Positions 3,453-60,058 of a DNA stretch of 64,000 bases are shown one piece after another. A model generated the notes under the pieces. It had not been told where the DNA came from. It was given only the letters and a program-made list of their open reading frames with translations, and did not search any database. The position numbers and the translations under genes are program-made. Origin of the DNA: an uncultured Candidatus Saccharibacteria bacterium (GTDB taxonomy: Bacteria; Patescibacteriota; Minisyncoccia; Minisyncoccales; Staskawiczbacteraceae); the NCBI GenBank assembly GCA_964479955.1, contig CAYZNK010000002.1:71489-135488 (forward strand), read 5' to 3'. How positions within the stretch are numbered: the stretch's first letter is position 1; every line of letters begins with the position of its first letter.

Positions 3453-4367
3453 ATGATTACTTATTTAAAAAGGATTTTAAAATTTGCGTTTCAGGATTTT
3501 AACAGAAATAAGGGAATTTCCATTGCTGCAATTTTTGTTTTGATGATTACAATGATGCTTGTAAGCGGAATTTTTCTGACACAGGGAATGATGTCTTACT
3601 TAATTTCCGAAGTAAAAAATAAAATAGATATTACAGCATACTTTAAAGACGACACTTCAGAAGAAGAAATTTTGGCTGTCAAAGATGCAATATTGGCATC
3701 TTCTTCTGACATAAAAAACATAAAATATATTTCAAGGGAGCAGGCTCTGGTATCATTCAATCAAAAGCACGGAGACGATGCGGTTTTATTAAGGGCATTA
3801 GAGCAGGTTGGAGACAACCCGTTTTTGCCGTCTTTAAACATTGTCACAAATGGGGAGACAGCCCAGTATGAGCAGATTTCAAACACACTGGAAACTTCAA
3901 ATTATGCCAAGCTCATTGAAAAAGTTGATTATTCTGAAAAAAAAGATACAATAGAAAAGGTTTATTCAATTACCTCAAATGTCAATAAATTTGGCATAGT
4001 GGCCGGAATTGTTTTAATTATTATTGCAGTTTTAGTTGTTTTCAACACTATAAAGCTGGCTGTTGAGAGCTCAAAGGCGGAAATAAGTACAATGAGAATA
4101 GTTGGGGCTTCCGACTGGTTTGTAAAAGGGCCGTTTATAATCCAAGGGGTTATCTATGGGGTCATAGGATTTTTGATAAGCGCATTATTGCTGGGGATGT
4201 TTACTTATCTGCTCTCACCAAAAATTGCGCTAGTGCTTCCGGGATTTGATTTGTACGATTATTACTTTTCGCGATTTTGGCTCCTGTCTTTAATACAATT
4301 GATTTTTGGAGTTGGTGTGGGAATTGCCTCCAGCCTTATTGTAATAAAAAAGCATTTGGATATTTAG
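3453..4367 (+). CDS. ftsX: cell division permease-like protein FtsX
   Basis: 304 aa with an N-terminal TM, an extracytoplasmic domain and 3 C-terminal TMs. Sits downstream of ftsE. Confidence 0.85.
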   Translation: MITYLKRILKFAFQDFNRNKGISIAAIFVLMITMMLVSGIFLTQGMMSYLISEVKNKIDITAYFKDDTSEEEILAVKDAILASSSDIKNIKYISREQALVSFNQKHGDDAVLLRALEQVGDNPFLPSLNIVTNGETAQYEQISNTLETSNYAKLIEKVDYSEKKDTIEKVYSITSNVNKFGIVAGIVLIIIAVLVVFNTIKLAVESSKAEISTMRIVGASDWFVKGPFIIQGVIYGVIGFLISALLLGMFTYLLSPKIALVLPGFDLYDYYFSRFWLLSLIQLIFGVGVGIASSLIVIKKHLDI

Positions 4368-4381
4368 GAATTTAAAATCAT

Positions 4382-4452
4382 TGCGGGATCGTCTAATGGT
4401 AGGACATCGCCCTCTGGAGGCGAGTATCTTGGTTCGAATCCAAGTCCCGCAG
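4382..4452 (+). tRNA. tRNA-Gln(CUG)
   Basis: Acceptor tgcggga/tcccgca, anticodon arm tcgcc-ctCTGga-ggcga, T arm cttgg-ttcgaat-ccaag. 71 nt. Confidence 0.85.
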
Positions 4453-4454
4453 CA

Positions 4455-4619
4455 TTAGCAATCTTCAATATCTTTAGATATTGAAGATTGGTATTGTTAA
4501 GGCGGACTTTGTATGAGAACCAAGCCCCCGAATTGCGCCGAGCCAACAGGGAACCCCGCCACAGCGGGGCGAGGCGGCAATGCTTTCGAGAACTGCCTTC
4601 GAATCCAAGTCCCGCAGCA
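4455..4619 (+). repeat. tRNA-3'-end-associated hairpin element (copy at tRNA-Gln)
   Basis: Parts in order: a 15-bp AT palindrome (4459-4490), an inverted diverged copy of the tRNA-Gln 3' part, cccccgaattg, the hairpin cgaggc-ggcaat-gctttcg, then an exact 22-nt direct copy of the tRNA 3' end (4598-4619 = 4433-4454). Confidence 0.75.
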
Positions 4620-4739
4620 GTTTGAGTAAATTTTTAGGCGTTGCTAAATGCCTTAAAATTTACTCTTATAACAGCGGATTTTGTATAATAACCTTTAAAA
4701 TGGTTGAGTATATAATATTTCTATAGCGCGTTTTACTTT

Positions 4740-5372
4740 ATGAAAAATATTATGAAAAATAAAATAATAACAATAATAATCTTAATCGTTGTTGTTATAG
4801 TTTTGGCAGGAGGCATTGTTTATTATATAAAACAAAATAAACCAATGTCTGGAATCGGTATTACAGAAAATAATCAGACGGCTAATGAGGAGCAACTACC
4901 AAACAAAATAGTGACTGATGATTTTTCCATTACTCTTCCAATAGGATGGAGCAAAACTACTAATACGGTGCCAGGTGTTTTGGCTTTGGCTGCCAATCCT
5001 AATGAAAAGATTAATGACGAAGCAGCAGAAAAGATTAATTTTAAAAGTTATTTAGCAATAAGTTCCGAAGCGCTTTCCGGAAAAAATTTGGAAGAATATA
5101 TGCAATCTACCAAAAATGAAATACAAGCAACGATTTCCGGAACTATTTTTAGTAATGAAAATGCTTTAATAATAAACAATAGGTCTGCCCGCGCCGTTGA
5201 GGCAGAAATGACTCAGCAGGGAGTGGATTTTAAAGTTTTAATGGTTGTAATCAATGGAAACAGAGATAGTGTTTGGGTATTATCCTACAACACTACAAAA
5301 AATGATTGGGCTGGTTATAAAGATCATTTTGCCGAAAGCGCTAAAAGTTTTATCATAAAGAGTGAAAATTAA
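4740..5372 (+). CDS. membrane-anchored or exported hypothetical protein
   Basis: 210 aa with an N-terminal hydrophobic anchor. No motif recognised. Confidence 0.6.
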   Translation: MKNIMKNKIITIIILIVVVIVLAGGIVYYIKQNKPMSGIGITENNQTANEEQLPNKIVTDDFSITLPIGWSKTTNTVPGVLALAANPNEKINDEAAEKINFKSYLAISSEALSGKNLEEYMQSTKNEIQATISGTIFSNENALIINNRSARAVEAEMTQQGVDFKVLMVVINGNRDSVWVLSYNTTKNDWAGYKDHFAESAKSFIIKSEN

Positions 5373-5670
5373 AAATTGAAAAAAATCCGACAATAGAACA
5401 AAAAGACTTAATACCAATCTCAAGTCTTTTTTTAAGTTTATTTTTGTTTTATTCTTCTGTCTTTGCCGTGGCTTAAATCTAATCTTTTTGCCAAATTGGC
5501 AGGTATTGTTTTAACCCTTAAATTTTTTATAGGGCGGGGGATTGGTTTTTGCCCCTGATTTTTTTTGGAAAAATATTGATTCATGCCTTTATTATACACT
5601 AAAATTAAAAAGCTTTTAATTGCCAAAATTTTTTGTTAAAATAAAATAATAAAATTAAAATTTTAATATT

Positions 5671-5982
5671 ATGGCAAATATTGAAAAAAGAGACCCTGTG
5701 CTGGTTGTTATTTTAAGTATAATCACACTGGGCATATACATAATTTACTGGTTTGTAAAAACCAAAGAAGAAATGAAATCCCTTGGAGCCGATATTCCAA
5801 CAGCTTGGTTGATAATAGTTCCTGTTGCCAATGTTTATCTGCTTTATAAATACTGTGAAGGGTTTTCTGTTTATGTTAAAAAAGATAATATGGGGTCCGT
5901 ATGGTTTTTAGTTGCCTTGGCAATCCATATTTTAATAATTCCAATTATTCAAGTTGAGTTAAATAAATTGGCAGAAGCTTAA
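5671..5982 (+). CDS. small membrane protein (DUF4234-like)
   Basis: 103 aa with 3 TMs. The ILSIITLGIYIIYWF motif resembles DUF4234. Confidence 0.5.
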   Translation: MANIEKRDPVLVVILSIITLGIYIIYWFVKTKEEMKSLGADIPTAWLIIVPVANVYLLYKYCEGFSVYVKKDNMGSVWFLVALAIHILIIPIIQVELNKLAEA

Positions 5983-5985
5983 TTT

Positions 5986-6897
5986 ATGGCTTATTGGCTG
6001 ATTGTTATAATAATAGCGTATTTCTTTTTTGCTCTGTCTGCTCTTGGGGATAAGCTTGTTTTGGCTGGCCCCGCAAACCCCAAGGCATATGTGTTTTATG
6101 TTGGGTTATTGAGCATACTGGCTGTTTTTTTGATTCCGTTCGTTGGAATTAAAATTCCCACAACGGGCATGTTTTTTCTGATTGCACTTGATGCAATTAT
6201 TTTTTATATTGCTTTGTATTTTGGGTTTGTGGCAGTTGAAAAATTTGAGATTTCAAGGGTTGCTGTAACAATAGGGGCAACCCAGCCCATATTTATATTT
6301 TTTGTTTCATGGATTTTTTGGGGGTACCAGGGAATTGGATTTTTGGGATTTTTGGCGTTTATTTTTTTGTTTTTAGGAAGCATTATTGTTTCTTTTGACA
6401 AGAAGCTGGAATTTAAAAACAAATACCTGGCGCTTACTCTTTTTGCATCATTGATGTATTCTTTTGATTATTTGATGTCAAAATACATTTTTGAATATTT
6501 TTCCTTTTGGCACGGAATAATATTCAAAAGCGTATTTTTATTTTTAATTTCCATTAGCTTAATTTTAATAAAAAAGAACAGGCAGGAAATCTTAAAGAAA
6601 AATAAAAATTCAGAAAAACAGAAATCATTTGGCAAGTTATTTTTAGCAACGCAGGCATGCGGGGCAGGGGCTAATGTTTTGCAGAGTTTTGCTATTTTTC
6701 TAACGCCGGTGGGATTTTTGCCGGTTTTAAATTCATTAAGGGGATTGCAATATATTTTCTTGTTTACATTTACTTTGTTTATAACGCGTTTTTTCCCTAA
6801 AATCCTCAAAGAAAAAATTTCAAAGAAAACAATAACCAGAAAGGCATTTTCCATTCTTTTAATTATTCTTGGCCTGACGGCTTTGATTTTTTGCTAA
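5986..6897 (+). CDS. polytopic membrane protein, DMT/EamA-like
   Basis: 303 aa with about 10 hydrophobic helices. The family call is tentative. Confidence 0.45.
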   Translation: MAYWLIVIIIAYFFFALSALGDKLVLAGPANPKAYVFYVGLLSILAVFLIPFVGIKIPTTGMFFLIALDAIIFYIALYFGFVAVEKFEISRVAVTIGATQPIFIFFVSWIFWGYQGIGFLGFLAFIFLFLGSIIVSFDKKLEFKNKYLALTLFASLMYSFDYLMSKYIFEYFSFWHGIIFKSVFLFLISISLILIKKNRQEILKKNKNSEKQKSFGKLFLATQACGAGANVLQSFAIFLTPVGFLPVLNSLRGLQYIFLFTFTLFITRFFPKILKEKISKKTITRKAFSILLIILGLTALIFC

Positions 6898-35685: not shown

Positions 35686-35713
35686 TTGACAAGAATTTAT
35701 TTTGGATTAAGAT
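35686..35713 (+). promoter_or_regulatory. 16S rRNA promoter
   Basis: TTGACA, 16-nt spacer, TAAGAT. The same -10 hexamer occurs at the 23S promoter. Confidence 0.6.
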
Positions 35714-36094
35714 ACATATATAACAATTAAAAACATAAAGACAAAATCACTATATATTCTTCCCGTCATTGCGGGATCCCCCGCTAAGCGGGGGAAAAAC
35801 TAAACAGCGTTTTAAGAATATCCGTGAAGGCAGGTTTTAAAGGTCTGTCTTCACGGGTATTTTTTCTTCTTGGCTGAACGGAAAGCCTTTTGATAATTGA
35901 ATAATGGAAACCAGTTTTAAAAACTGGGAAAAAATTGAATTAGCGGAGTGTCCACAGTACTGAAAATTTCTACGAAAATTTTAGCGCTGAGAGAATTCAC
36001 TTCGTGTAATTCGTTTCTTAAAGTTGTTTCGAATCAAAGCTTGTCGAGTGCTTAACTCGACAGTAGTTTATTCTAACTAGAGTAATCAACTTTT

Positions 36095-37556
36095 TTTTGA
36101 GAGTTTGATCCTAGCTCAGGGTGAACGCTGGTAACGTGGATACCGGCATGCAAGTCGAGCGGACCGCAAGGTCAGCGGCGAACGGCATAGTAACACGTGG
36201 GTACAAACCCTTTTCTCGGGTATAGCCAGCCGAAAGGTTGGGTAATTCCCGATAGTTCTCGCAAGAGTAAAGTCGCAAGACGGAAAAGGATTGGCCCGCG
36301 GCCTATCAGATTGTTGGCAGGGTAACGGCCTACCAAGTCTATGACGGGTAGGGGGCGTGAGAGCGCGACCCCCATGAATGGCACTGCGACACGGGCCATA
36401 CTCCTACGGGAGGCTGCAGTCGAGAATCTTCCGCAATGGGCGAAAGCCTGACGGAGCGACGTTACGTGAATGAAGAAGCCCTTCGGGGTGTAAAGTTCTT
36501 TTATGTGGGAATAAGTTATTGAAGGTACCACATGAATAAGAGGATCCTAATTCTGTGCCAGCAGGAGCGGTAATACAGAATCCTCAAGCGTTACCCGGAT
36601 TTATTGGGCGTAAAGGGTCCGTAGGTGGTAAAGTAAGTTTTGAGTTAAACCTCATCGGCTTAACCTTTGAGCTATTCAAAATACTGCTTTACTTGAGGGC
36701 GTTATGGGTGAACGGAACCGACGGAGTAGGGGTGAAATCCGTTGATATCGTCGGGAACACCAAAAGCGAAGGCAGTTCACTGGGGCGACCCTGACACTGA
36801 GGGACGAAAGCGTGGGTAGCAAAAAGGATTAGATACCCTTGTAGTCCACGCCGTAAATGATGAATACTAGCTATTGGCAGTGTCGACCCTGCCAGTGGCG
36901 AAGCTAACGCGTTAAGTATTCCGCCTAGGAAGTACGGTGGCAACACTAAAACTCAAAGGAATAGACGGGGACTCACACAAGCGGTGGACCATGTGGCTTA
37001 ATTCGACAACAAACGAAGAACCTTACCAGGTCTAGAAATCTGCATGAAAGCCTTCAGAAACGTTGGCCCTTCACAAGACATGCAGACAGGTGCTGCATGG
37101 TTGTCGTCAGTTCGTGTCTTGAGACGTACCGTTAATTCGGGTAACGAACGCAACCCTTGCCGTGTGTTTTAAATGTCACACGGGACTGCCCGAGATAATT
37201 GGGAGGAAGGCGAGGATGACGCCAAATCAGCATGGCCCTTTGATGACCTGGGCCGCACACGTGGTACAATGGCCGGTACAATGGGTTTCGATGCCGCAAG
37301 GCGGAGATTAATCTCATCAAAACCGGTCTCAGTTCGGATTGAGGGCTGAAACCCGCCCTCATGAAGCTGGAATCGCTAGTAATCGCCAATCAGCTATGTG
37401 GCGATGAATACGTTCCTGAGTCTTGTACTCACCGCCCGTCAAGCCAAGCGAGCTGGGGATAGCCGAAGTGCCCGCAAGGGCCCTAAGCTAGATTCAGTAA
37501 GAGGGGCTAAGTCGTAACAAGGCACGGCTAGCGGAAGCTGGTCGTAGATCATTTTT
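36095..37556 (+). rRNA. rrs: 16S rRNA (stand-alone; no linked tRNA or 23S)
   Basis: Starts near gagagtttgatcctagctcag and ends ...aagtcgtaacaaggcacggctagcggaagctggtcgtagatcattttttt. Flanked by a processing stem (36013-36036 pairs with 37690-37713) and a terminator at about 37762-37790. Confidence 0.9.
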
Positions 37557-37840
37557 TTAAAATTTTGTATAGAAACCTTTTGGTTTATATACAAAATGGA
37601 ATGTAGTCGGCTCAGAGTGATTCGATAAACTCAGTTCGATGAGTATATCGAATTGTTCTGAAGCATTTTAGCAGATTTGCTTGAAAATCGCATTCGAAAC
37701 AACTTTAAGAAACTAATTTTTCCACAGAAAAATTATCCTGAGATTTTCGAAGGGTAAGACATTACTCCGTCAAAAGCGGAGTTTTGTTTTGATTAAGGTT
37801 GTTCTTGAAAATTAGTTGGAAAAGAATTAAGCTATCTTAT

Positions 37841-44932: not shown

Positions 44933-45235
44933 ATGGAATTTACTATCAATAATATAGAAGAAAATGTTGTAGTTGTTGCCAGGAGAATTGGTTATTTGAT
45001 TATTGATACAAAAGAAAATGGGGAATATAATTTAGTTAGGAGATTAACGCAGGGAAATTATCCAAGGTTTCATATTTACGCAAAAGTTCAGGGAGATAAA
45101 TATATTTTTAGTTTGCACTTAGACCAAAAAGCTCCCATATATAAAGGGAGTCATGCGCACAGCGGAGAATATGCCGGGCCTGTTGTGGACGCTGAAGCAG
45201 ATAGAATTTGCGAAGTGTTAGGAAAATCAGAATAA
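44933..45235 (+). CDS. hypothetical protein
   Basis: 100-aa ORF with AT-rich backbone composition. No family recognised. Confidence 0.55.
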   Translation: MEFTINNIEENVVVVARRIGYLIIDTKENGEYNLVRRLTQGNYPRFHIYAKVQGDKYIFSLHLDQKAPIYKGSHAHSGEYAGPVVDAEADRICEVLGKSE

Positions 45236-45370
45236 AACCCTATCACCAATTTCAGCCAAGTTAAAAGGTAAGATATACTTTGAAGGCGAAGTGCCTTCGG
45301 CTGTTAATTTTGTAATATAAAGTCAGCGGTGAAATTGGTGAGGGGTTATTGCGACGGTAAGGTATAAATC
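45236..45370. repeat. hairpin-core element, copy A
   Basis: About 80% identical by eye to 57591-57732. Terminal inverted repeat is aaccctatcaccaatttc / gaaattggtgaggggtt, and the inner hairpin is gaagg-cgaagtg-ccttc. Confidence 0.75.
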
Positions 45371-48374: not shown

Positions 48375-49020
48375 ATAATTACATGATGAAAAAACAAACC
48401 AATAAATTTAACAAAACAAGCGGATGATTGTCTGACTTTTTGTGTTAGTAGATGACCGCTTGAATAAGCGGTTTTAAATTTATTGAAAATCAGTTTGCCG
48501 GCGATTGAAAATATAAATTGTTTTCAGCCGCGGGTTAATTGATTGAAGCGGAAGCAAAGATTGCTTTTTGAAAATTTAACCCTGTTAAATGTTTTAAATA
48601 ACAAATTGCCTACCAGCAATTTTTAACAGGTTCTTCCCAATTAATTTTAGACATGGGGTCTTTTTAATTGGGGAAAGTAGGTAAGTCCTGTTAAAATTTT
48701 AACAGGATAAAGCATAAAATTAAGTTCACATTTGCGTTGATGATTCAGCGCAAAAAAGTAAACTTACGCAAAAAGATAAGCTTAACAATTAAGTTTATCG
48801 AAGGATAGGTTATAAGCGAATGGCGGATGCCTTGGGATATTGATGCGATGAAGGACGTGGCGTGCCTGCGATAAGCATCGGGGAGGTGGCTAGCAACCTT
48901 TGATCCGGTGATTTCCGAATGGGAAAACCTTATTGTGTTAATCCACAATAACCCCGCCTTGGCGGGGAGCGTACCCGGTGAAGTGAAACATCTCAGTAGC
49001 CGGAGGAAAAGAGAACAAAA

Positions 49021-49289
49021 GTCCTACAACTTACAAATTTTATCAATTTAGCGAAGCGAATTTTGAGACAAATTCGCGACGCGAGGAGCAGTGCGTGCCA
49101 AGTGGCACGAGAGCGACGAAGCAACAAAGAATTTGGCCAAAATTCGTTCGCCCGAAGGGAAACGAAAAAAATGGCTGATTTCTTTGTTGCAACTTCGTTA
49201 ACGTAGTTAACACTATGTTTCCTCGTTGCGCCTCGAAATCATCACATTTTTTCGTTTCTAAATATGACGAAATTTGTAAGTTGTAGGAC
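49021..49289 (+). other. 23S insertion sequence 1 (IVS-like), closed by a 20-bp perfect helix
   Basis: gtcctacaacttacaaattt (49021-40) pairs with aaatttgtaagttgtaggac (49270-89). It lies between GAGGAAAAGA and AGTAGTGGCGAGCGAA. Confidence 0.75.
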
Positions 49290-49346
49290 AAGTTATATCC
49301 TTAGTAGTGGCGAGCGAAAAGGATACAGCCTAAACTAATTTTTTTA

Positions 49347-49505
49347 CACCGCTACTTTTTGATAATTTTCGTAACGAAATAAAATAATTTTGCGCGAGAA
49401 TTTGGAAATGCAAGGAGGTTTGCCAAGTGGCAAGCCGACGAGCAGTTACAAATTTGTAGCCGAAATTATTAATTGCAGTAGAAAAGTTATCAGAAAGTAG
49501 CGGTG
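49347..49505 (+). other. 23S insertion sequence 2 (IVS-like), closed by a 19-bp helix
   Basis: caccgctactttttgataa pairs with ttatcagaaagtagcggtg (one G-U pair). It shares a gccaagtggca...cgacga.gca block with insertion 1. Confidence 0.7.
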
Positions 49506-49861
49506 AAATTAGGGTTGTAAGGTTGTAGCGTCAGGAGCGTTATTTATTCTTCGTATAGTCGAAGAACGAATAATGCTTGCTGAGAGAGAAAATTTAGATA
49601 AAGGTTTTAATAGAAGCACTCTGGAAAGAGGCGCCATAGAAGGTAATAGCCCTGTATATAAAAAAACTATTTATGCTCTTTGCTATGATACTTGAGTACT
49701 GTCGGGCATGATAACCTGGCAGGAATCTACCGGAACTATCCGGTAAGGCTAAATAATCAATATCACCGATAGTGAACCAGTACCGTGAGGGAAAGGTGAA
49801 AAGCAGGGGGTTGACCCCGATGAAATAGTACCTGAAACCATTTGCTTACAAAGAGTCGGAG

Positions 49862-49943
49862 GTCTTCACCTTTTGGGTGTTGAGTTTAATTGTGGAACAA
49901 AACAATTTCCACAAAAATAATTTGACCTTCAAAAGGTGAAGAC
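49862..49943 (+). other. 23S insertion sequence 3 in the helix-25 region
   Basis: gtcttcacctttt pairs with aaaaggtgaagac, a 13-bp perfect stem. Confidence 0.7.
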
Positions 49944-50586
49944 TGACGGCGTGCTTTTTGTAGAACGAGCCAACGAGTTTGAATAATCAATAGTCTAAGC
50001 CCTTACGGGGCGGAGGCACAGCGAAAGCGAGTGTTAAAAGCGCGAAAAATTATATTGGTTGTTCAAGACCCGAAGCCAGACGAGCTTACCGCGAGCAGGA
50101 TGAACCCGGGCGAAAGCCAGGGGGAGGTCCGAACCAGTGAGTCGTGCAATTCTCTTGGATGACTTGTGGTAAGGAGTGAAAAGCTAATCGAGTTTGGTAA
50201 TAGCTGGTTCTTCCCGAAACAGCTTTGGGGCTGGCGTGTACAAACTATTTTCCGGGGGTAGAGCACTGAATAGAATTCCGTGGAGTTTCTCCAGGTCTTC
50301 TAATCAAACTCCGAATACCGGAAAAACTATGTATGCAGTAAGAACGCGGGGGCTAAGCTCCGCGCTCAAAACGGAAACAGCCGAGATCATCGTCTAAGGT
50401 CCCTAAATTAGGCTAAGTGCTAAGAAGGAGGTATTTTACCCTTGACAGGCAGAAAGTTAGCTTAGAGGTAGCTATCTTTTAAAGAGTGTGTAACAACCCA
50501 CTGCCCAAACTTTCCCGCTTGCGGGAGAGAGGGGTGAGATGCGCCAAAGATTTCCGGGGCTAAAGTCTAATACCGAAGACATGGAT

Positions 50587-50712
50587 TCATTCGCATCACA
50601 CTGCGTGTGATGTTAAATGACCAAAAACCAAAAACCAAAAATATTTAATATTTTGGGATTTGAGAATTGGAATTTGGGAATTTAAGCATCGTGCGAAGCG
50701 CGATGCGAGTGA
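50587..50712 (+). other. 23S insertion sequence 4 in the helix-45 region
   Basis: tcattcgcatc pairs with gatgcgagtga. It contains a CA-repeat / UG-repeat hairpin (50621-50683). Confidence 0.65.
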
Positions 50713-51003
50713 GTGGTAGGGAAGCATTCTGAGGGCATTGAAGCAGGAGGGTAACCGACTGTGGAGCGCTCAGAAGAGAGAATGTTGGCCTGAGTAACCG
50801 CATTGCGCGTGAAAGCCGCGCACACCGAAAGTCCAAGGTTTCCTTGGCAATGGTATTCAACCAAGGGTTAGGCGGTCCTAAGGCAAACCTGAAAGGGGTA
50901 GCTGACGGACAGTTGGTTAATATTCCAACCCTTTTTTATCCGTTCAATAAAGTGCGGAATTTAGTAGGTAAAGCGATTTATTGGATTATCGTTGTTAGTC
51001 AGA

Positions 51004-51030
51004 CCTGTCTGCCGTCAGGCAGGCGCAAGA
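51004..51030 (+). repeat. CCTGYCTG...CAGGCAGG palindromic element, copy inside 23S
   Basis: cctgtctg-ccgt-caggcagg-cgcaaga. Confidence 0.6.
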
Positions 51031-51420
51031 ATGGCTAACGGAAGGTCTCTTTATGGGGCTGACTTTACTGAGCAAGTTTCCAAGAAAAGCTTTATTTAAA
51101 TAGGATAAAGAAACCGTACCGTAAACCGACACAGGTGGACAAGCGTAAGTATGCTAAGGTGAACGGGTGAAACCTCGTTAAGGAACTCGGCAAATCAGTG
51201 GCCGTAAGTTCGCAATATGGCCTGCCCGACACGCAAGTGTTTAGGGCTGCAACAAACGTACTTCAACCGACTGTTTATCAAAAACACAGCTCTCTGCTAA
51301 CTCGTAAGAGGATGTATAGGGGGTGAGGCCTGACCAGTGTTGGAATGTTAAGTTTGGGGGTCCAAGCCGCAAGGTTTGGGCTCACTGAATGAAGCACCAA
51401 TGAACGTCGGCGATAACTAT

Positions 51421-52151
51421 AGACTGACGATTGTAGTTATAAAATTTGGCTATATGCTGGAAACTCCGGGTATGTTGAACTACTATCCGTTACTATGATA
51501 AAATATATAGTAATGGAAGTAAAAATGTTTAAACGCGGACAATCAGCAGGAAAGACTTTTGACGAGAAACTCGCTAACTACTTGAGCGGTTTTACTGATG
51601 GCGAAGGAAGCTTCAATATTTCAGTAATTAATCGTGAGAAAGACTATAAACACGGCTGGAAAATCAGCTTGTGTTTCAATATTTCTCAAAAAGATGACAC
51701 AATACCAAGATTATTTAAGGATTTTCTTGATTGCGGTAAAATAAGATACCGCAAAGATGGAATTTGTTATTTTGATGTTAGAAAAACAAAAGATTTAACA
51801 AATATTGTTGTGCCATTCTTTAAAAAATTTCCAGTGCGTTCAAAGAAAAATGAAACTTTTCAGATTTTTTGTGAGGCGTTGGAGATTGTTAAATGTAAAA
51901 AACATTTAACAAAATCCGGAATGAAAAAAATTCTGGATTTGAGAAATAAAATTGTAGTTGGCAGAAAAAGAAAGTATACAAATTCAGAGATACTTTCTAC
52001 TTATAATCAAAAGAATCCTCAGAGACTATACGCCAAACCCCGCTTAGCGGGGAAGATATAGTCCGACCTGCATAGCGATATGCAGAATATAATAGAAATA
52101 TTATATCAAGATACTAAAACTGACTTAATTTAGTATTAGTAACATAAAAAG
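51421..52151 (+). mobile_element. group I intron in the helix-69 loop (after the U equivalent to E. coli U1917)
   Basis: The exon ends ...gataactaT and resumes aatcgtccaaaggtagcg. Intron guide gtagttat (51433-40) pairs with the 8 exon nt ataactat via G-U at the splice site. The intron ends in G and has the core motif aagatatagtccgacc. Confidence 0.8.
51495..52061 (+). CDS. LAGLIDADG homing endonuclease (intron-encoded)
   Basis: YLSGFTDGEGSFNISV motif. The ORF lies inside intron 1 and ends within the core motif. Confidence 0.8.
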   Translation: MIKYIVMEVKMFKRGQSAGKTFDEKLANYLSGFTDGEGSFNISVINREKDYKHGWKISLCFNISQKDDTIPRLFKDFLDCGKIRYRKDGICYFDVRKTKDLTNIVVPFFKKFPVRSKKNETFQIFCEALEIVKCKKHLTKSGMKKILDLRNKIVVGRKRKYTNSEILSTYNQKNPQRLYAKPRLAGKI

Positions 52152-52815
52152 AATCGTCCAAAGGTAGCGTAATCCCTTGCCGGGTAAGTTCCGGCCCGCA
52201 TGAATGGCTTAACGAGTTGAAGACTGTCTCAACGAGGTGCCCGGTGAAAATGCAATAGCAGTGAAGATGCTGCTTACCTGCGGCTAGACGGGAAGACCCC
52301 GGAAGCTTTACTGTAGTTTGATATTGGGTTATGGTTTTTAATGCGTAGCGTAGTGGGGAGGATATGAAACGGCATTTTCGGATGTCGCGGATCCGCCAAT
52401 GAAACACCCATCTTTGGGAATTATAATTCTAATCCACGCCTCAACGGCGGGTGACAGTGTTAAACGGGCAGTTTAAGTGGGGCACTTGCCTCCTAAAAAG
52501 TAATGGAGGCGTTTAAAGGTCAGCTAGCTTCGGATGGAAATCGAAGCGATAGTGTAAAGGCAAAAGCTGGCTTTACTGCAAGACGGCTATGTCACGCAGT
52601 TGCGAAAGCAGAACTTAGTGAACCGACTTGTTTTTATAGAAAACAAGAAGATCATCAGCCAAAAGCTACTCCGGGGATAACAGGCTGGTAGAGCCCGAGC
52701 GTCCATAGCGACGGCTCTGTTCGGCACCTCGATGTCGGCTCAACTTATCCTGGGGCTGGAGCAGGTCCCAAGGGTCCGGCTGTTCGCCGGTTAAAAAGTT
52801 ACGCGAGCTGGGTTC

Positions 52816-52846
<31 letters not shown>

Positions 52847-52884
52847 ACCGCAGGCGTTGAGTTTTGAGGAGATTTGTTCCTAGT

Positions 52885-53985: not shown

Positions 53986-54098
53986 CCGGTGGCGACTATG
54001 CTGGAGTTGTCCCACCTGATCCCATTCCGAACTCAGAAGTGAAATACTCTAAGGCCGATGGTAGCGCTTATGCGCGAGAGTAGGTAGTTGCCACCAGA
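53986..54098 (+). rRNA. rrf: 5S rRNA
   Basis: ccggtggcgactatgc...cccattccgaactcagaagtgaaa...gtaggtagttgccaccag. Confidence 0.85.
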
Positions 54099-55041: not shown

Positions 55042-55583
55042 TGTGGATAAAAATTTTAATCTCTGCCATTTTGTTTTATTTTATCGTGCTTCTGCAGAAC
55101 AGTTTTTTTGTTTATTTTAATATTTTTGGGGCGGTTCCAAACTTTATTTTTATTTTTTTCTTTTTTCTGGTTTTCTTCAGCAAAAAAAAAGATTATTATG
55201 AAACAATTTTTTATTCTCTGACTGCCGGGTTTTTTTCGGATATTTTTTCCCCATTCAAAATGGGAATTTCAATTGCTCTGCTTTTAATGATTGGGGTTCT
55301 GATTAAGAAAGTTATTTTAACTTTAAGAGAAAGGGAGGAAAAATATCCTCTTATTTATTTTGTTGCAATATTTACAGCATCATTTTTGGCTTATTGCGTA
55401 TCGCTGGAGATTTACTTGTGCATTTTAAGCCAATGCCAAATTTTATCAATTTTTAGCGCAAGCTTTTTAACAGAATTTTTTTATACGCTATTTTTTGCGG
55501 CGCTTATTTTTTTAATTTGCAAAAAATTTTTGAAAAATAAAAAAGACAGCTTGCAAACAGGCTTATTAAAAAATGTTTTCTAA
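55041..55583 (+). CDS. mreD: rod shape-determining protein MreD
   Basis: 180 aa with about 5 TMs. The start overlaps the mreC stop and the gene sits between mreC and PBP2. Confidence 0.65.
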   Translation: MWIKILISAILFYFIVLLQNSFFVYFNIFGAVPNFIFIFFFFLVFFSKKKDYYETIFYSLTAGFFSDIFSPFKMGISIALLLMIGVLIKKVILTLREREEKYPLIYFVAIFTASFLAYCVSLEIYLCILSQCQILSIFSASFLTEFFYTLFFAALIFLICKKFLKNKKDSLQTGLLKNVF

Positions 55584-57495
55584 TAAATACAGATTAAAAA
55601 AGGCTTTTGCCGACATTGAAACACACGAAGTTTTTTTGGACAAACTGGCAAAAGCAAAAGAGCAGGAACTTGGAATATCGGAAAAAAAGTTGGAAGTTCC
55701 TTTGCAGGAAAAAATATCCTATGTGCTTTTGTTTATTTTTTTGCTGATAGAGATTATTTTCTTGTCAAAAACTTTTTACCTACAAATTATTGACGGAAAA
55801 AAGCTTTATACTGCAGCAGAAAATAATAAAGGAAACGAAAGCCTTATAATTCCGGAAAGGGGAATAATATACGACATTAACTTAAAAAAACTTGTTTCAA
55901 ATTCTCCTGCCTATGACCTGGTTTGTGACAAAAGGTTTTTTTCATATTCATCTTTGCAGGCAATAAGCGAAATAAATTCAATATCGGAAATATTGGGGTT
56001 AAATCCAATGGAATTGCAAAAACAAATTGAAAATTCAAAATCTTCTGAAATTATTATTTCAGAAGGATTGGACCATGAAAGCCTTCTTGTTTTAGAGTCT
56101 AAAATAGGAAACCTTGAAGGGTGCAGAATAGTTCAAAACACAATAAGGAATTATCAATATGGGCAGATTCTCTCGCATATTTTGGGATATATGGGGAGAA
56201 TAAACAGCGATGAATACAGTAATCTTAAAGGGTATGCCATAAATGATAAAATTGGGAAATTGGGGATTGAAAAATATTATGAAGATTATCTAAGAGGAAC
56301 GCCGGGACAATCAAGAATTATAAAGTCTGCAACAGGGGAAAAGGAGCAGAAAGAAACAATTTCAGAGCCTGTTGCCGGCAATAATCTGGTTTTAAACATA
56401 AACGCGGACTTACAAAAAAAAGTTTATGAGGCCTTAGAATCAAGTATAAAAAATCTTGGCTCAAAAAAGGGGGCTGCAGTTGCAATAGACCCAAGGACAG
56501 GGGCTGTTTTAGCTCTGGTTTCTTATCCTTCTTATGACGACAATTTATTTTCAGGCGGAATTTCTTCTGAAGATTACAGCCTTATAGAAAAAGAAGAATC
56601 TCTTTTTAACAGGGCGATTCAAGCAAAATATCCTACTGGCTCTACAATCAAGCCTTTTGAAGCCGCAGGGGCTTTGGAGGAAAATATTATTTCTCCGGAA
56701 AAAAAGATAAACGACATAGGCTATATAGAAGTCAAAAGCAAATACGACCCCAATGTTGTCTGGAGGTATGGAGGGGTAACGCCCCATGGATGGGTTGATA
56801 TGAAAGAAGCCATTGCTGTTTCTTCAAACATATATTTTTATACAGTTGGCGGAGGCTATGAAGACCAGCAGGGATTGGGACCCGCAAGAATCAAAGAATA
56901 TCTTGAATTATTTGGCTGGGGAAAGAAAACAGGGGTTGACCTGCCCAATGAATTTGAGGGATTTATACCAACTCCGGAATGGAAACAGCAGAATATAAAA
57001 GAATCCTGGTGGGACGGAGACACTTATAACCTTTCAATTGGACAAAGCTATCTTGAAGTAACTCCTTTGCAAGTGGCTTATGCATATTCTGCAATTGCAA
57101 ACAGCGGAACTTTGTATAAGCCCCAGATTATAAACAAAATAATTGAATCGGCGGAGAACAATGACATATTATTAAAAAGTTTTGCGCCTGAAATTATTAG
57201 AGAAAATTTTATTGATAAAGAAAATTTGCAAATTGTAAGAGAGGGCATGAGAGATTGCGTTCAGGAAAGCTATGGCTCTGCATATTATTTAAACAGCTTG
57301 CCCGTTGACGTTGCGGCAAAAACAGGTACAGCAGAAACTGGCAGAGACGGATATTACAACGCATGGATTTCAACTTTTGCTCCATATGAAAATCCGGAAA
57401 TTGTTTTTGTTGCCACAATTGAAAATGTTGAGGGATTAAGGTCTGCAACTCTGCCGGTTGCGTATAATGTACTTGACTGGTATTTCAGTAGATAA
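55573..57495 (+). CDS. mrdA: penicillin-binding protein 2 (elongation transpeptidase)
   Basis: STIKPF (SxxK), SSN and KTGTAE motifs. 640 aa. Confidence 0.85.
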   Translation: MFSNKYRLKKAFADIETHEVFLDKLAKAKEQELGISEKKLEVPLQEKISYVLLFIFLLIEIIFLSKTFYLQIIDGKKLYTAAENNKGNESLIIPERGIIYDINLKKLVSNSPAYDLVCDKRFFSYSSLQAISEINSISEILGLNPMELQKQIENSKSSEIIISEGLDHESLLVLESKIGNLEGCRIVQNTIRNYQYGQILSHILGYMGRINSDEYSNLKGYAINDKIGKLGIEKYYEDYLRGTPGQSRIIKSATGEKEQKETISEPVAGNNLVLNINADLQKKVYEALESSIKNLGSKKGAAVAIDPRTGAVLALVSYPSYDDNLFSGGISSEDYSLIEKEESLFNRAIQAKYPTGSTIKPFEAAGALEENIISPEKKINDIGYIEVKSKYDPNVVWRYGGVTPHGWVDMKEAIAVSSNIYFYTVGGGYEDQQGLGPARIKEYLELFGWGKKTGVDLPNEFEGFIPTPEWKQQNIKESWWDGDTYNLSIGQSYLEVTPLQVAYAYSAIANSGTLYKPQIINKIIESAENNDILLKSFAPEIIRENFIDKENLQIVREGMRDCVQESYGSAYYLNSLPVDVAAKTGTAETGRDGYYNAWISTFAPYENPEIVFVATIENVEGLRSATLPVAYNVLDWYFSR

Positions 57496-57503
57496 ATTTA
57501 TTG

Positions 57504-57533
57504 CCTGCCTGCCGGTAGGCAGGTACGACAAAA
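57504..57533 (+). repeat. CCTGCCTG...AGGCAGG palindromic element, intergenic copy
   Basis: cctgcct-gccggt-aggcagg-tacgacaaaa. Confidence 0.65.
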
Positions 57534-57590
57534 TAGTCATTGCGGTTTCTGACACCGCAATGACTATTTTTATTTGCAGCAGATAAAATA

Positions 57591-57732
57591 AACCCCATCA
57601 CCAATTTCATTCAAATAAAAGGTAAGACATAGTTTTGAAAGGCGAAGCGCTTTCGGCTGTCAGTGTTGCGATACAAAGTCAGTGGTAAAATTGGTGAGGG
57701 GTTTTGCGGCGGTAAATGTAATTATCCGCCGC
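57591..57732. repeat. hairpin-core element, copy B
   Basis: Terminal inverted repeat aaccccatcaccaatttc / aaaattggtgaggggtt and inner hairpin gaaag-gcgaagcg-ctttc. Homologous to 45236-45370. Confidence 0.75.
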
Positions 57733-58449
57733 AAAAAAAAGAGCGCCGTGCTATGCTCTTCCCAGTGCCGCCTTATGGAATTGGGCGGGGATTTTTTAAG
57801 GGTGAGCGATAAACACGGCGCAAAATGCAGCAAAGCCTCATTTTCGAGAGCTCGTAGGGATAGGGTTTTCCACCATAACAGGTACCGTCCCCGTAGCCCA
57901 ACATCACTGCATTTGAATGATAGACTGACAGGAGGCCCGCTTGTGCACAACAACGGGCTTTTGTGTTTGCGTTCTTGCCGCAGGCAAACTCTTTACGGGC
58001 GGTACAATATTTCCGCCGGTTGAAGCTGTGCCACACTAAGTTGGCCAAATATCAAACCGTGTGGATGGGATGCCCCATTTGCTCTGCTCAACTGCGTCTA
58101 GGAGCATAATGGGATATTCTGGGCTGATCCTTCACTTCCGCTAGATCCCGCGAACTTAGTTGAGCTGAGTTGCGATACGCAAGGTAAGTGAAGGACTGCA
58201 TCAGCGCAGTAGAATTTTTCCAATTTCACGGTAGTCGCTATAGGATGCGAAATCCTGCCAACTCCCTGTCAGTCTTGTATGAAAAGTGCATGCGAGTTTC
58301 TTGCTTGGTCCTTTACAGGATGGGGAGAAACTCTATTTTTTGTTTTGCAACACTAGTCTGTACCCCAAAACTAGCGAAGATTCCAGCTGTCTTTTTTTCG
58401 AGGCATCTCCCGCCGGAATTTACGGAAATGCACGCTATTTTGAAAAGAT
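57733..58449 (-). ncRNA. candidate ~700-nt non-coding transcript, or a decayed cassette; class unknown
   Basis: GC-richer block with a minus-strand promoter at 58456-58484 and a weak stem plus U8 at 57733-57759. It has only overlapping 90-113 aa ORFs on both strands with non-protein-like sequences. Several long-range helices are present (for example tccttcactt / aagtgaagga). Confidence 0.4.
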
Positions 58450-58455
58450 GTTTTT

Positions 58456-58484
58456 ATCTTAGCATATAGCAATTCTCCTGTCAA
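58456..58484 (-). promoter_or_regulatory. sigma70-type promoter driving the 58449->57733 unit
   Basis: On the minus strand: TTGACA, 17-nt spacer, TAAGAT. A second TTGACA lies 20 nt upstream. Confidence 0.55.
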
Positions 58485-58600
58485 GGGTTGTGCTAGTTTG
58501 TCAAGTTTGTTATTATTAATAAAATAAAATATTTAAAAAAATAAAAATATAATTATTTAGCAGAAAGTTGATTTTTAAAGTTGAATTTCTGCTACCCGAT

Positions 58601-60058
58601 ATGGCAACTATTGATGAATTAAGAAAAATTAGAATTGAAAAATTAAGAAAACTGCAGGCAGCCGGAATTTTGGCATACCCGGCAAAAACCAATAGAACCC
58701 ACACCATAAAAGAAGCCTTAGAGCAGTTTTCAAAGTTGGAAAAATCAAAAGAAACAATTGTTTTGGCAGGCAGGATAATGGCGCAAAGGGGGCACGGAAA
58801 AGCTTCTTTTATTGATATATATGACGGAGATAAAATTCAGGTAATTTTAAAAGAAGATAAATTGGGGGAAAAAGGATACAAGTTTTTTGCAGATATTTTT
58901 GACATTGCTGATTTTGTTGAGATAAAAGGAACGCTTTTTACAACTCAAAAAGGAGAAAAAACAATTGAGGCAGAAGATTATAAAATGTTGGCAAAAACCC
59001 TATTGCCTTTGCCTGAAAAATGGCACGGAATTTGCGATGTTGAAGAATGTTTGAGAAAAAGATATTTGGACATTCTGTTTAATCCGGAAGTAAAAGAAAT
59101 GGTTGAAAAGAGAACTGTTTTTTGGGCCTCAATGCGTGAATTTTTGGTTAAAAAAGGATTTATGGAAGTTGAAACGCCTGTTTTGGAAACAACACCCGGG
59201 GGAGCTGATGCCAGACCCTTTATAACTCATCACAACGCATTGGATATGGACTTATATTTAAGGATTTCAATGGGTGAATTATGGCAAAAAAAATTGATGG
59301 TTGCAGGTTTTCAAAAGACATTTGAAATTGGAAGGCAGTTCAGAAACGAGGGCATGGACCAAGAGCATTTGCAGGATTATACGCAGGTAGAATTTTATTG
59401 GGCGTATGCTGACGCGCAGATGGGCATGGAGTTGGCAGAACAAATGTATAAATATGTTGCAGAAAAAACTTTTGGAAAATTAAAATTTAAAATCCGAGGA
59501 CTTGATGTTGATTTTGGAAAAAAGTGGGAAAAGTATGACTATAAAACAGAAATATCAAAGCACACAAAAGTGAATATAGAAGAAGCAAGCTTGAATGAAA
59601 TGGAAAAAGCTTTGCAAAAATTGGAGATTGAATACGATAAAAAAGGGTTTAATAAGATAAGGGCAATGGATTGCTTGTGGAAATATTGCCGCAAAAAAAT
59701 TGCAGGACCGGGATTTTTAGTGCATCAGCCAATAGATCTTGACCCTTTGGCAAAAAAAGACGAAAAAAATCCAAATTATTCTCAAAGATTCCAGATAATT
59801 ATTGCAGGGTCAGAAATGGGAAAGGGATACTCTGAATTAAACGACCCCATTGACCAGGAAAAAAGATTTCAGGAACAACAGGAATTGCGCGAAAAGGGAG
59901 ATGAAGAGGCGCAGAGATACGACAAGGATTTTGTTGAGGCTTTAGAGCATGGCATGCCTCCAACCTGCGGATTTGGGGTTTCTGAAAGACTGTTTGCATT
60001 TTTAATGGATAAGCCCGCAAGAGAATGCCAGATTTTTCCTTTGATGAGACCAAAATAA
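58601..60058 (+). CDS. lysS: lysine-tRNA ligase (class II)
   Basis: FRNEGMD motif 2 region, GGADARPF, and a C-terminal motif 3 region. ATG at 58601. Confidence 0.9.
   Translation: MATIDELRKIRIEKLRKLQAAGILAYPAKTNRTHTIKEALEQFSKLEKSKETIVLAGRIMAQRGHGKASFIDIYDGDKIQVILKEDKLGEKGYKFFADIFDIADFVEIKGTLFTTQKGEKTIEAEDYKMLAKTLLPLPEKWHGICDVEECLRKRYLDILFNPEVKEMVEKRTVFWASMREFLVKKGFMEVETPVLETTPGGADARPFITHHNALDMDLYLRISMGELWQKKLMVAGFQKTFEIGRQFRNEGMDQEHLQDYTQVEFYWAYADAQMGMELAEQMYKYVAEKTFGKLKFKIRGLDVDFGKKWEKYDYKTEISKHTKVNIEEASLNEMEKALQKLEIEYDKKGFNKIRAMDCLWKYCRKKIAGPGFLVHQPIDLDPLAKKDEKNPNYSQRFQIIIAGSEMGKGYSELNDPIDQEKRFQEQQELREKGDEEAQRYDKDFVEALEHGMPPTCGFGVSERLFAFLMDKPARECQIFPLMRPK

Follow-up and report, generated by a model that had tools for sequence, protein, structure and literature searches.

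A candidate large structured RNA gene with a conserved scaffold and a hypervariable core between the PBP2 and lysyl-tRNA synthetase genes of a Patescibacteria genome

Large structured RNAs are few in bacteria, and RNase P RNA, transfer-messenger RNA (tmRNA), OLE, GOLLD, ROOL and raiA have each revealed unexpected biology. GOLLD and ROOL, like the RNA described here, pair a conserved part with a variable part, and the intervening sequences (IVS) of ribosomal RNA (rRNA) are excised by RNase III. Assemblies of GOLLD and ROOL have been described by cryo-electron microscopy (PMC12286853). The Patescibacteria, or Candidate Phyla Radiation (CPR), make up a major part of bacterial diversity and have a reduced and poorly understood cell biology. 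Searches of the literature and of Rfam found no large RNA specific to this group.

Here, we describe a locus in a 64-kb stretch of DNA, hereafter the window (64,000 nucleotides of contig CAYZNK010000002.1, from an uncultured Candidatus Saccharibacteria bacterium). The RNA gene in question occupies 57733-58455 of the minus strand, where it forms a stand-alone transcription unit with a predicted RNA of about 715 nt, and it is very probably a genuine gene for a structured RNA whose family is new and not in Rfam. An earlier note, made from the sequence of the window, had proposed either a large structured RNA or a decayed cassette, and the first of these readings is supported by a promoter, a terminator and a secondary structure that are conserved in four versions of the locus, by compensatory changes and by the lack of a conserved reading frame. 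The modular build of the RNA, a scaffold with three insertion sites, and the divergence of its core were beyond the reach of that note.

Promoter, versions and anatomy of the RNA gene

The minus-strand promoter (58456..58484) is composed of a -35 box TTGACA at 58484-58479, a 17-nt spacer and a TG-n extended -10 box TAAGAT at 58461-58456, and transcription is predicted to start near 58449. The combination TTGACA-N16-18-TAAGAT occurs at 3 sites in the window against 0.03 expected, and no shuffle attained 3. The two other sites, at 35686 (16S) and 48346 (23S), each lie ~400 nt upstream of an rRNA gene, which bears out the earlier remark that the -10 hexamer is that of both rRNA promoters. The block was also described as GC-richer, and its GC content is indeed 0.47-0.51 across 57600-58350 versus 0.29-0.39 in the adjoining genes (about 0.50 versus about 0.33), comparable to that of the rRNA genes in the window (16S 0.51, 23S 0.43, 5S 0.53). 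The window carries 16S, 23S and 5S rRNA genes and six tRNAs. These rRNA genes are unlinked (16S 36093-37559, 23S 48803-52881, 5S 53988-54096), with a 16S-23S distance of 11 kb; the 23S gene, at 4079 nt, exceeds its 2925-nt model and carries several insertions, among them one of 272 nt and one of 160 nt, and a LAGLIDADG ORF is present in the rRNA region of relatives.

Relatives were sought by flanking-protein anchors and by one motif scan each of GTDB genomes and JGI metagenomes. Only four distinct versions of the RNA turned up, and all belong to close relatives whose PBP2 genes share at least 86% nt identity: that of the window; L006, from a Logan assembly, with 98.2% nt identity to the window in PBP2; L028, with 87.8%, which is identical to L030, L031 and L032 (three samples); and L001/L002, with 86.3%. 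Genomes with the RNA occur in JGI samples 3300029288 and 3300037067, in ENA ERZ27247363 and in SRR8925719. Homologous promoters precede the RNA in L006, L028 and L001 (TTGACA-17 with ATATGCTAAG(A/C)T / ATATGCTAAATT), the -10 regions reading ATGC-TAAGAT, TAAGCT or TAAATT. The -35 box, the 17-nt spacer length and the TG-extended -10 box are kept in all four versions despite divergence of the spacer sequence.

A scaffold of about 250 nt is common to all versions and consists of hairpins H1 and H2, an 11-bp long-range helix (P_A) and a terminator domain. The order of elements is the same in 4/4 versions: promoter, A-run, H1, A-rich linker, H2, joint, P_A, AUUCAA joint, terminator domain and U-run. 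Three variable insertion sites lie after the start (site i), inside P_A (the core) and before the terminator domain (site iii), and the predicted transcripts of the four versions measure about 715, 700, 545 and 435 nt. All features described below are on the minus strand.

At the 5' end, a leader with the hairpin GCAUUUCCG...CGGGAGAUGC (58403-58431) fills 58399..58455; this is the 57-nt insertion at site (i), found only in the window and L006, while in L028 and L001 merely 10-12 nt separate the -10 box from the A-run. The 5' A-run AAAAAAAGAC (58389..58398), present in 4/4 versions, is the predicted partner of the 3' U-run at 57733-57742 and would close the RNA; this helix (helix 1: 6 pairs, 100% paired, no double changes) also appears in minimum free energy folds. 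H1 (58353..58374), found in all four versions, has in the window a CUAGU/ACUAG stem and the invariant loop motif GGGGUACAG, its loop GGGGUACA being the same in every version. H2 (58294..58333) is formed by GAGUUUCU / AGAAACUC with an internal loop CCCCA / CYAAGCA (helices 3 and 4, 100% paired), and its cap UCCU-GUAA-AGGA (58309-58320) is a GNRA tetraloop, the loop being GUAA in two versions (window, L006) and GCAA in the other two (L028, L001). A conserved single-stranded junction, GCAUGCACUUUUCAUACA (58276..58293), of which CUGCACUUUUCAU is invariant in the four versions, leads to the 5' strand of P_A, AGACUGACAGG (58265..58275). The latter is a perfect 11-nt complement of the 3' strand CCUGUCAGUCU (57922..57932), 332 nt away, and P_A is conserved in all four versions (helix 5, 97.7% paired).

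The hypervariable core enclosed by P_A (57933..58264) contains P_B (58257-58264 with 58038-58045), a first hairpin (58242-58256), an AUGGGG..CCCAU hairpin, P_C and the P_D hairpin (57935-57958). Between the conserved motifs CTGACAGGGAGTT and TGTCAGTC its length is 329, 317, 307 and 196 nt in the four versions. The helices traced in the earlier note are true inverted repeats, namely TCCTTCACTT/AAGTGAAGGA (58128-58137/58186-58195), CTCTGCTCAACT/AGTTGAGCTGAG and AGGAT-TTCGC-ATCCT.

Beyond P_A, the conserved junction AUCAUUCAA (57913..57921), with an invariant AUUCAA, is followed by insertion site (iii), where a 90-nt extra hairpin domain with an AUGCAG/CUGCAU closing stem (57823..57912) is found only in the window and L006 and is absent from L001, L002 and L028. 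The 3' terminator domain (57733..57821) comprises the long hairpin GCGCCGUG...CACGGCGC at 57743-57821, with an inner stem CCGCC/GGCGG (57768-57788), and then UCUUUUUUUU at 57733-57742; it is 93% identical in L001 and L002, and its helices 10 and 11 are 98.7% and 100% paired. The block had been thought to end at a weak stem plus U8. The U-run stands (U8/A8 at 57733-57740), but the actual stem is the long hairpin GCGCCGTG...CACGGCGC of 57743-57821 and not only the short one of 57733-57759. The hairpin GCGGCGG/CCGCCGC and the repeat called element B were placed correctly next to it, at 57702-57736 and 57590-57705.

Element B recurs between genes; it measures about 115-125 nt and folds into inner hairpins and an 18-bp closing stem, AAACCCCATCACCAATTT / AAATTGGTGAGGGGTTTT. 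The two copies in the window (57590-57715 and 45235-45360) are 83% identical and a further copy is present in L028 (3805-3929). The copies sit directly 3' of genes and have no Rfam match, and element B may represent either a small structured RNA or a repeat of the MITE type. L001 is without it, so that in the window element B appears as an insertion between PBP2 and the RNA terminator.

The RNA block is bordered on one side by the gene for penicillin-binding protein 2 (PBP2; 55573-57495, plus strand), the closing gene of mreC-mreD-PBP2, and on the other by lysS (about 58604-60058, plus strand), which codes for a class II lysyl-tRNA synthetase (LysRS). The best named relatives of both proteins come from Patescibacteria (CPR) metagenome-assembled genomes labelled Candidatus Staskawiczbacteria, Daviesbacteria and Gribaldobacteria, and exact look-ups found neither of the two window proteins on record. 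Directly 3' of PBP2, a near-perfect 20-bp hairpin AAAATAGTCATTGCGGTTTC / GACACCGCAATGACTATTTT followed by a T-run (57530-57570) is probably the terminator of the PBP2 operon in the window.

Compensatory changes, reading frames and selection

Single-sequence folds of the four versions lie 3.7 to 7.8 standard deviations (sd) below dinucleotide shuffles (z = -4.3, -3.7, -5.6 and -7.8). For a comparative test, the four versions were aligned over the scaffold with their variable middles swapped for linkers (alignment A5). The 83 pairs predicted on A5 are paired in 98.5% of cells versus 38-46% with partners slid by 1-3 columns, and 15 of them show double-sided changes against 5.2 +/- 1.7 in shuffles (0/500 attain 15) and 0-3 when slid. 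Many helices are thus preserved among the four versions by compensatory changes. P_B (helix 6) is compensated in three lineages (GAGUUGGC/GCCAACUU, GAGUUGAC/GUCAACUU and GAGUUAGUG/CACUAACUU), the first core hairpin reads AGGAU/AUCCU or GAAGG/CCUUC, and P_D (helix 9) reads GCCCG/CGGGC or GACUUUCCG/CGGAAAGUC, with five double changes. The inner terminator stem CCGCC/GGCGG is CUACC/GGUAG in L028 (two double changes), and another terminator pairing changes from GCUC/GAGC to GCUU/AAGC in L001. By direct reading, the H1 stem CUAGU/ACUAG is wholly swapped for CCUUAUC/GAUAAGG in L028 and L001 with the loop unchanged; this swap was left out of the pair counts because MAFFT misaligned the H1 stem. The consensus fold of the window and L006 cores has 87 pairs, 10 of them compensatory, with an energy z of -5.1 against column shuffles.

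The only ORFs in the block are overlapping frames of 43-113 aa on both strands with GTG or TTG starts. They have no Pfam match (seven ORFs searched; only a chance sub-threshold match to Baculo_IE-1, E 0.014, 15.8 bits versus a cut-off of 33.1) and no frame is conserved in the four versions, which agrees with the earlier view that the block lacks a credible ORF. Homologs with a conserved ORF, which the note had held would speak against an RNA, were not seen, since no reading frame is kept among the four versions. No stop-free stretch is common to them beyond those that nucleotide identity alone produces in several frames of both strands. Indels of 1 nt are present within conserved blocks and break the reading frames in the conserved junction 58276..58293, and no open stretch in L028 exceeds 58 aa. 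An exhaustive HMMER search with a 106-aa stretch gave 0 matches among 1.84 billion proteins. A conserved small ORF, as in a type I toxin-like mRNA, was rejected by direct reading, as the sole ATG of the scaffold opens 17 codons in the window and 7 in L001 and is absent from L028.

No ORF over the RNA is called by any source in the window's own record. Metagenome gene callers did place spurious ORFs over the 3' module and core of L001 (3806-4030, plus strand, 74 aa) and L002 (3690-3893, plus strand, 67 aa), and these form an unnamed two-member cluster in public protein collections. Genetic code 4 opens no spanning ORF. The 23 stop-free stretches of at least 300 codons in the window end in TAA (17), TAG (6) or TGA (0); the genetic code looks standard, with long genes free of in-frame TGA under code 11, and the avoidance of TGA stops is notable.

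Sequence identity separates the RNA into two parts. Between the window and L006 it is 95.9% at PBP2 third positions, 99.8% in LysRS (nt), 99.3% in the scaffold and 67.6% in the core. Between the window and L028 the same figures are 73.2%, 89.4%, 76.5% and 51.6%, and between the window and L001 (LysRS not available) they are 70.4% for PBP2 third positions, 84.8% for the scaffold and 41.3% for the core, with a shuffled-core baseline of 47.5%. In each of the three pairs, scaffold identity exceeds that of PBP2 third positions, so that the scaffold is under purifying selection, whereas the core evolves much faster than near-neutral sites yet still folds. For an RNA gene, it is unusual that a core enclosed by a conserved frame should differ by one third between strains that are otherwise 96-99% identical.

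The best explanation of the locus as a whole is a stand-alone structured RNA with a scaffold-borne function and expansion sites, to which we give a probability of roughly 0.6. The rRNA-type promoter and rRNA-like GC content, together with a scaffold under purifying selection, indicate that the RNA is probably abundant and functional. The same promoter and GC content, ends that are predicted to pair, the GNRA cap and invariant loops, and the lack of a downstream gene or complementary target suggest an abundant stable RNA with a scaffold function. The RNA would then accumulate as a stable, abundant species with its expression coupled to that of rRNA, and its function would reside in the scaffold, the RNA being presumably neither an antisense regulator nor a leader. 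It could act as a folded scaffold, either for protein partners in a ribonucleoprotein (RNP) or in an RNA-only assembly, as OLE, ROOL, GOLLD and raiA do; a specific scaffold or RNP role of this kind is a tentative proposal, less probable than not. Three positions would tolerate large hairpin inserts, like the expansion and intervening sequences of rRNA, and the core inside P_A may be required only to fold and be exchanged between lineages by recombination through its conserved flanks. Such recombination would explain a divergence far beyond that of neutral sites.

Several observations weigh against this explanation. The structures tested were predicted from the same four sequences, and the covariation statistics are weak because the versions are only four and come from one narrow clade. 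The A-run/U-run closing helix and a possible GGGG:CCCC loop-loop contact, between the H1 loop and the H2 internal loop, are invariant across versions. Folding does not separate the two strands of the window (z = -4.3 for minus, -4.45 for plus), and the consensus energy is -81 kcal/mol on the minus strand versus -93 kcal/mol on the plus strand. The gene neighbourhood, PBP2 and LysRS here and unrelated small ORFs in more distant relatives, suggests no protein partner. A universal housekeeping role is unlikely, since the locus is devoid of the RNA in relatives with 72-74% PBP2 identity and the RNA's most conserved motif is missing from all GTDB species representatives.

Core divergence and alternative explanations

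The simplest reading of the core is that recombination across its conserved flanks has replaced it, as happens with rRNA intervening sequences; diversifying selection is the more exciting alternative. The RNA could be a specificity cassette in which the scaffold presents the core as a recognition determinant (for phages or mobile elements, for a host cell, or for strain discrimination), with alleles swapped and diversity favoured. The contrast between the window and L006, where the core stands far below both PBP2 third positions and the scaffold (67.6% against 95.9% and 99.3%), is what such a cassette would produce; 112 differences fall in 57949-58348 versus 0-11 per 200 nt in the flanking genes, and the cores of the remaining pairs match one another about as well as shuffled sequence does (0.39-0.52 versus 0.475), yet each is strongly folded. 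A second patch of 79 window-L006 differences, at 58349-58748, lies for the most part in the promoter spacer and in the AT-rich stretch before lysS. However, a neutral expansion segment replaced by recombination predicts the same pattern, the complementarity of the core to the rest of the window is not above chance, and no defence genes adjoin the RNA. The L028-type RNA is identical in three independent metagenomes and is thus not changing rapidly. L006 is a unitig-based Logan contig and possibly a strain chimera, but the variant core must itself exist in nature. We consider a specificity cassette unlikely on this balance. A bolder form, slightly less probable still, is a CPR-specific scaffold that displays a swappable, structure-preserving core, its alleles being exchanged via the flanking helix between near-identical strains and their diversity kept by selection. 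If true, the swappable core would be an RNA-level specificity determinant, for example in defence against phages and mobile elements or in host-cell recognition by epibiotic bacteria, with no known counterpart.

Next in standing, and improbable, is an origin from a mobile or selfish element, by which an orphan intron-like or IVS-like RNA, or a guide or omega-type RNA minus its protein, would have landed in a variable spot. The spacer between PBP2 and LysRS is in fact a variable spot that accepts different cargo in one orientation. In three relatives with 72-74% PBP2 protein identity (L003, L004 and L005), PBP2-LysRS adjacency is kept, but the RNA is lacking at the locus and the spacer is only about 470 nt. 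It holds unrelated small ORFs there (minus strand 5029-5295 in L003 and 5470-5685 in L004; also in L005), of which those of 88 aa and 71 aa have no Pfam match. The repeated element B adjoining the RNA, the GC content of the RNA, which differs from that of the genome, the many insertions in the CPR rRNA genes of the window and the narrow distribution of the RNA also favour such an origin. On the other side, no group I/II intron, HEARO or ribozyme model matches at E up to 10 in three versions, and no transposase, reverse transcriptase (RT), IscB/TnpB or endonuclease gene adjoins the RNA. The RNA is single copy in the window and in the relatives' loci examined, where nhmmer profiles of three scaffold modules found no second copy, and blastn against a phage collection and three viral-contig motif scans gave nothing past seed matches. 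Purifying selection on the scaffold and an rRNA-type promoter of its own likewise speak against such an origin.

The narrow distribution itself deserves comment. A scan of GTDB genomes with CTCCCCATCCTGNAAAGGA gave 21 matches, all seed-only chance matches in unrelated phyla, and the JGI metagenome scan with TTCTCCCCATCCTGNAAAGGAC returned a single contig, L028. The LysRS-anchored search recovered only the L028 type again, identical in three samples, and an unrelated Gribaldobacteria locus. As these searches gave four versions only, the family is either narrow or too diverged for exact-motif searches, and so far it is confined to one genus-level clade. Among the loci collected, a Candidatus Gribaldobacteria contig (L029, PFPR01000016.1) codes at 4146-6150 for a partial LysRS of 668 aa with two consecutive sets of anticodon-binding and catalytic domains, which reflects a tandem duplication or fusion unless the assembly is at fault.

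It is quite improbable that the functional strand is the plus strand, with the block serving as a structured 3' UTR of the mreC-mreD-PBP2 operon or as a lysS leader. The plus strand folds equally well or better and its prediction yields 93 pairs, but energy alone cannot pick the strand because each strand folds about 4.3-4.5 sd better than shuffles. The minus strand bears the conserved promoter and the hairpin-U8 terminator, whereas a conserved plus-strand promoter was not found and a plus-strand terminator precedes the block, formed by the 20-bp hairpin of 57530-57570 and its T-run in the window and by the inner stem and a T-run in L001 and L028. LysRS has an AT-rich promoter region of its own (TTGTCA-16-TAAAAT, 58498-58525), and no T-box or other leader model of Rfam 15 matches. 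The H2 cap reads as GNRA on the minus strand only, since its loop is GUAA or GCAA. A number of single substitutions leave a G.U pair on the minus strand where the plus strand would have A.C, as in an H2 pair that goes from U-A to U.G in L028, and the 66 pairs predicted independently on both strands include 6 G.U on the minus strand versus 1 on the plus strand. We take the minus strand as the predicted transcribed strand. Viewed on the plus strand, the inner stem with its T-run resembles the PBP2 terminator of relatives without element B, and it seems to take that role in L001, where the 57530-57570 hairpin is missing, which would make the RNA terminator bidirectional.

Finally, a decayed protein-coding cassette or functionless GC-rich foreign DNA, favoured by the overlapping 90-113 aa ORFs and by the spurious calls in L001 and L002, is rejected as highly improbable, because the scaffold is conserved above the near-neutral third positions of PBP2 and no protein similarity exists (no conserved frame, no Pfam match, nothing among the 1.84 billion proteins, no spanning ORF under code 4), and its helices are maintained by compensatory changes.

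Comparison with known structured RNAs

Rfam 15 was searched at gathering score on the whole window, where it detected only rRNA and tRNA, and at E up to 10 with permissive filters on the window, L001 and L028 versions, where it gave only chance miRNA and sRNA matches far below threshold. The Rfam comparison suggested in the earlier note therefore matched no family in these three versions, and, with ARAGORN, it upheld the note in setting the RNA apart from RNase P RNA, tmRNA and group II introns. For RNase P RNA, neither RF00010 nor RF00011 matched and the P4 strands GGAAAGUCC / ACAGAA are absent from the sequence; for tmRNA, ARAGORN found none in the window and a tRNA-like T-arm and CCA are absent. 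Group I and II introns gave no match at E up to 10, and the RNA has its own promoter and terminator and does not lie within a gene. OLE (RF01071) had no match, and the neighbours are mreC, mreD, PBP2 and lysS, not oapA, oapB or oapC. ROOL and GOLLD were also unmatched, with no tRNA within 3 kb of the RNA block by ARAGORN and no phage or viral similarity, as was HEARO/omega-RNA, with no IscB/TnpB ORF adjoining the RNA in the four versions. A retron msr-msd was considered since the inverted repeat P_A exists, but the downstream gene is the convergent PBP2 and there is no RT ORF. Riboswitches, T-boxes and ribosomal leaders had no Rfam match and no minus-strand gene lies downstream; the placement of a cis-regulatory RNA is not seen here because PBP2 is convergent.

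The RNA resembles RNase P RNA and tmRNA in its size class, its stable-RNA-type promoter, its ends predicted to pair and its conserved core with lineage-variable peripheral helices. Unlike these universal RNAs, it is absent at the locus in relatives with 72-74% PBP2 identity.

The likeness to rRNA intervening sequences and expansion segments, such as the 23S helix-25/45 IVS and the CPR rRNA insertions, concerns the inserts. Those are variable-length, strain-sporadic, self-folding segments inside a conserved helix, and the three insert sites of the RNA also evolve very fast with folding kept. The window's own 23S gene bears insertions of 160-270 nt. In contrast to these segments, the host RNA is not rRNA, and it has no sequence similarity to the rRNA insertions of the window. 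The locus is a concrete test case for the evolution of expansion segments or of RNA 'cassettes'.

OLE, ROOL, GOLLD and raiA offer the closest comparison. Like them, the RNA comes from a stand-alone gene of 400-800 nt, folds into many helices with GNRA loops and conserved joints of single-stranded sequence, is GC-rich against an AT-rich genome and has its own strong promoter and terminator, and its function is not deducible from sequence. The RNA differs from them in having no Rfam model match, a Patescibacteria host rather than Firmicutes and their phages, a locus without oap genes, tRNAs or prophage context, a distribution limited to one narrow clade and a core that evolves faster than neutral. 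With a promoter, a terminator, no conserved ORF and a structure compensated among only 4 sequences, it shows the features of the large structured stand-alone noncoding RNAs, which are a loose class and not a homology family. Within that class we place it as a new family with an unusual build, in which a conserved scaffold carries a hypervariable core.

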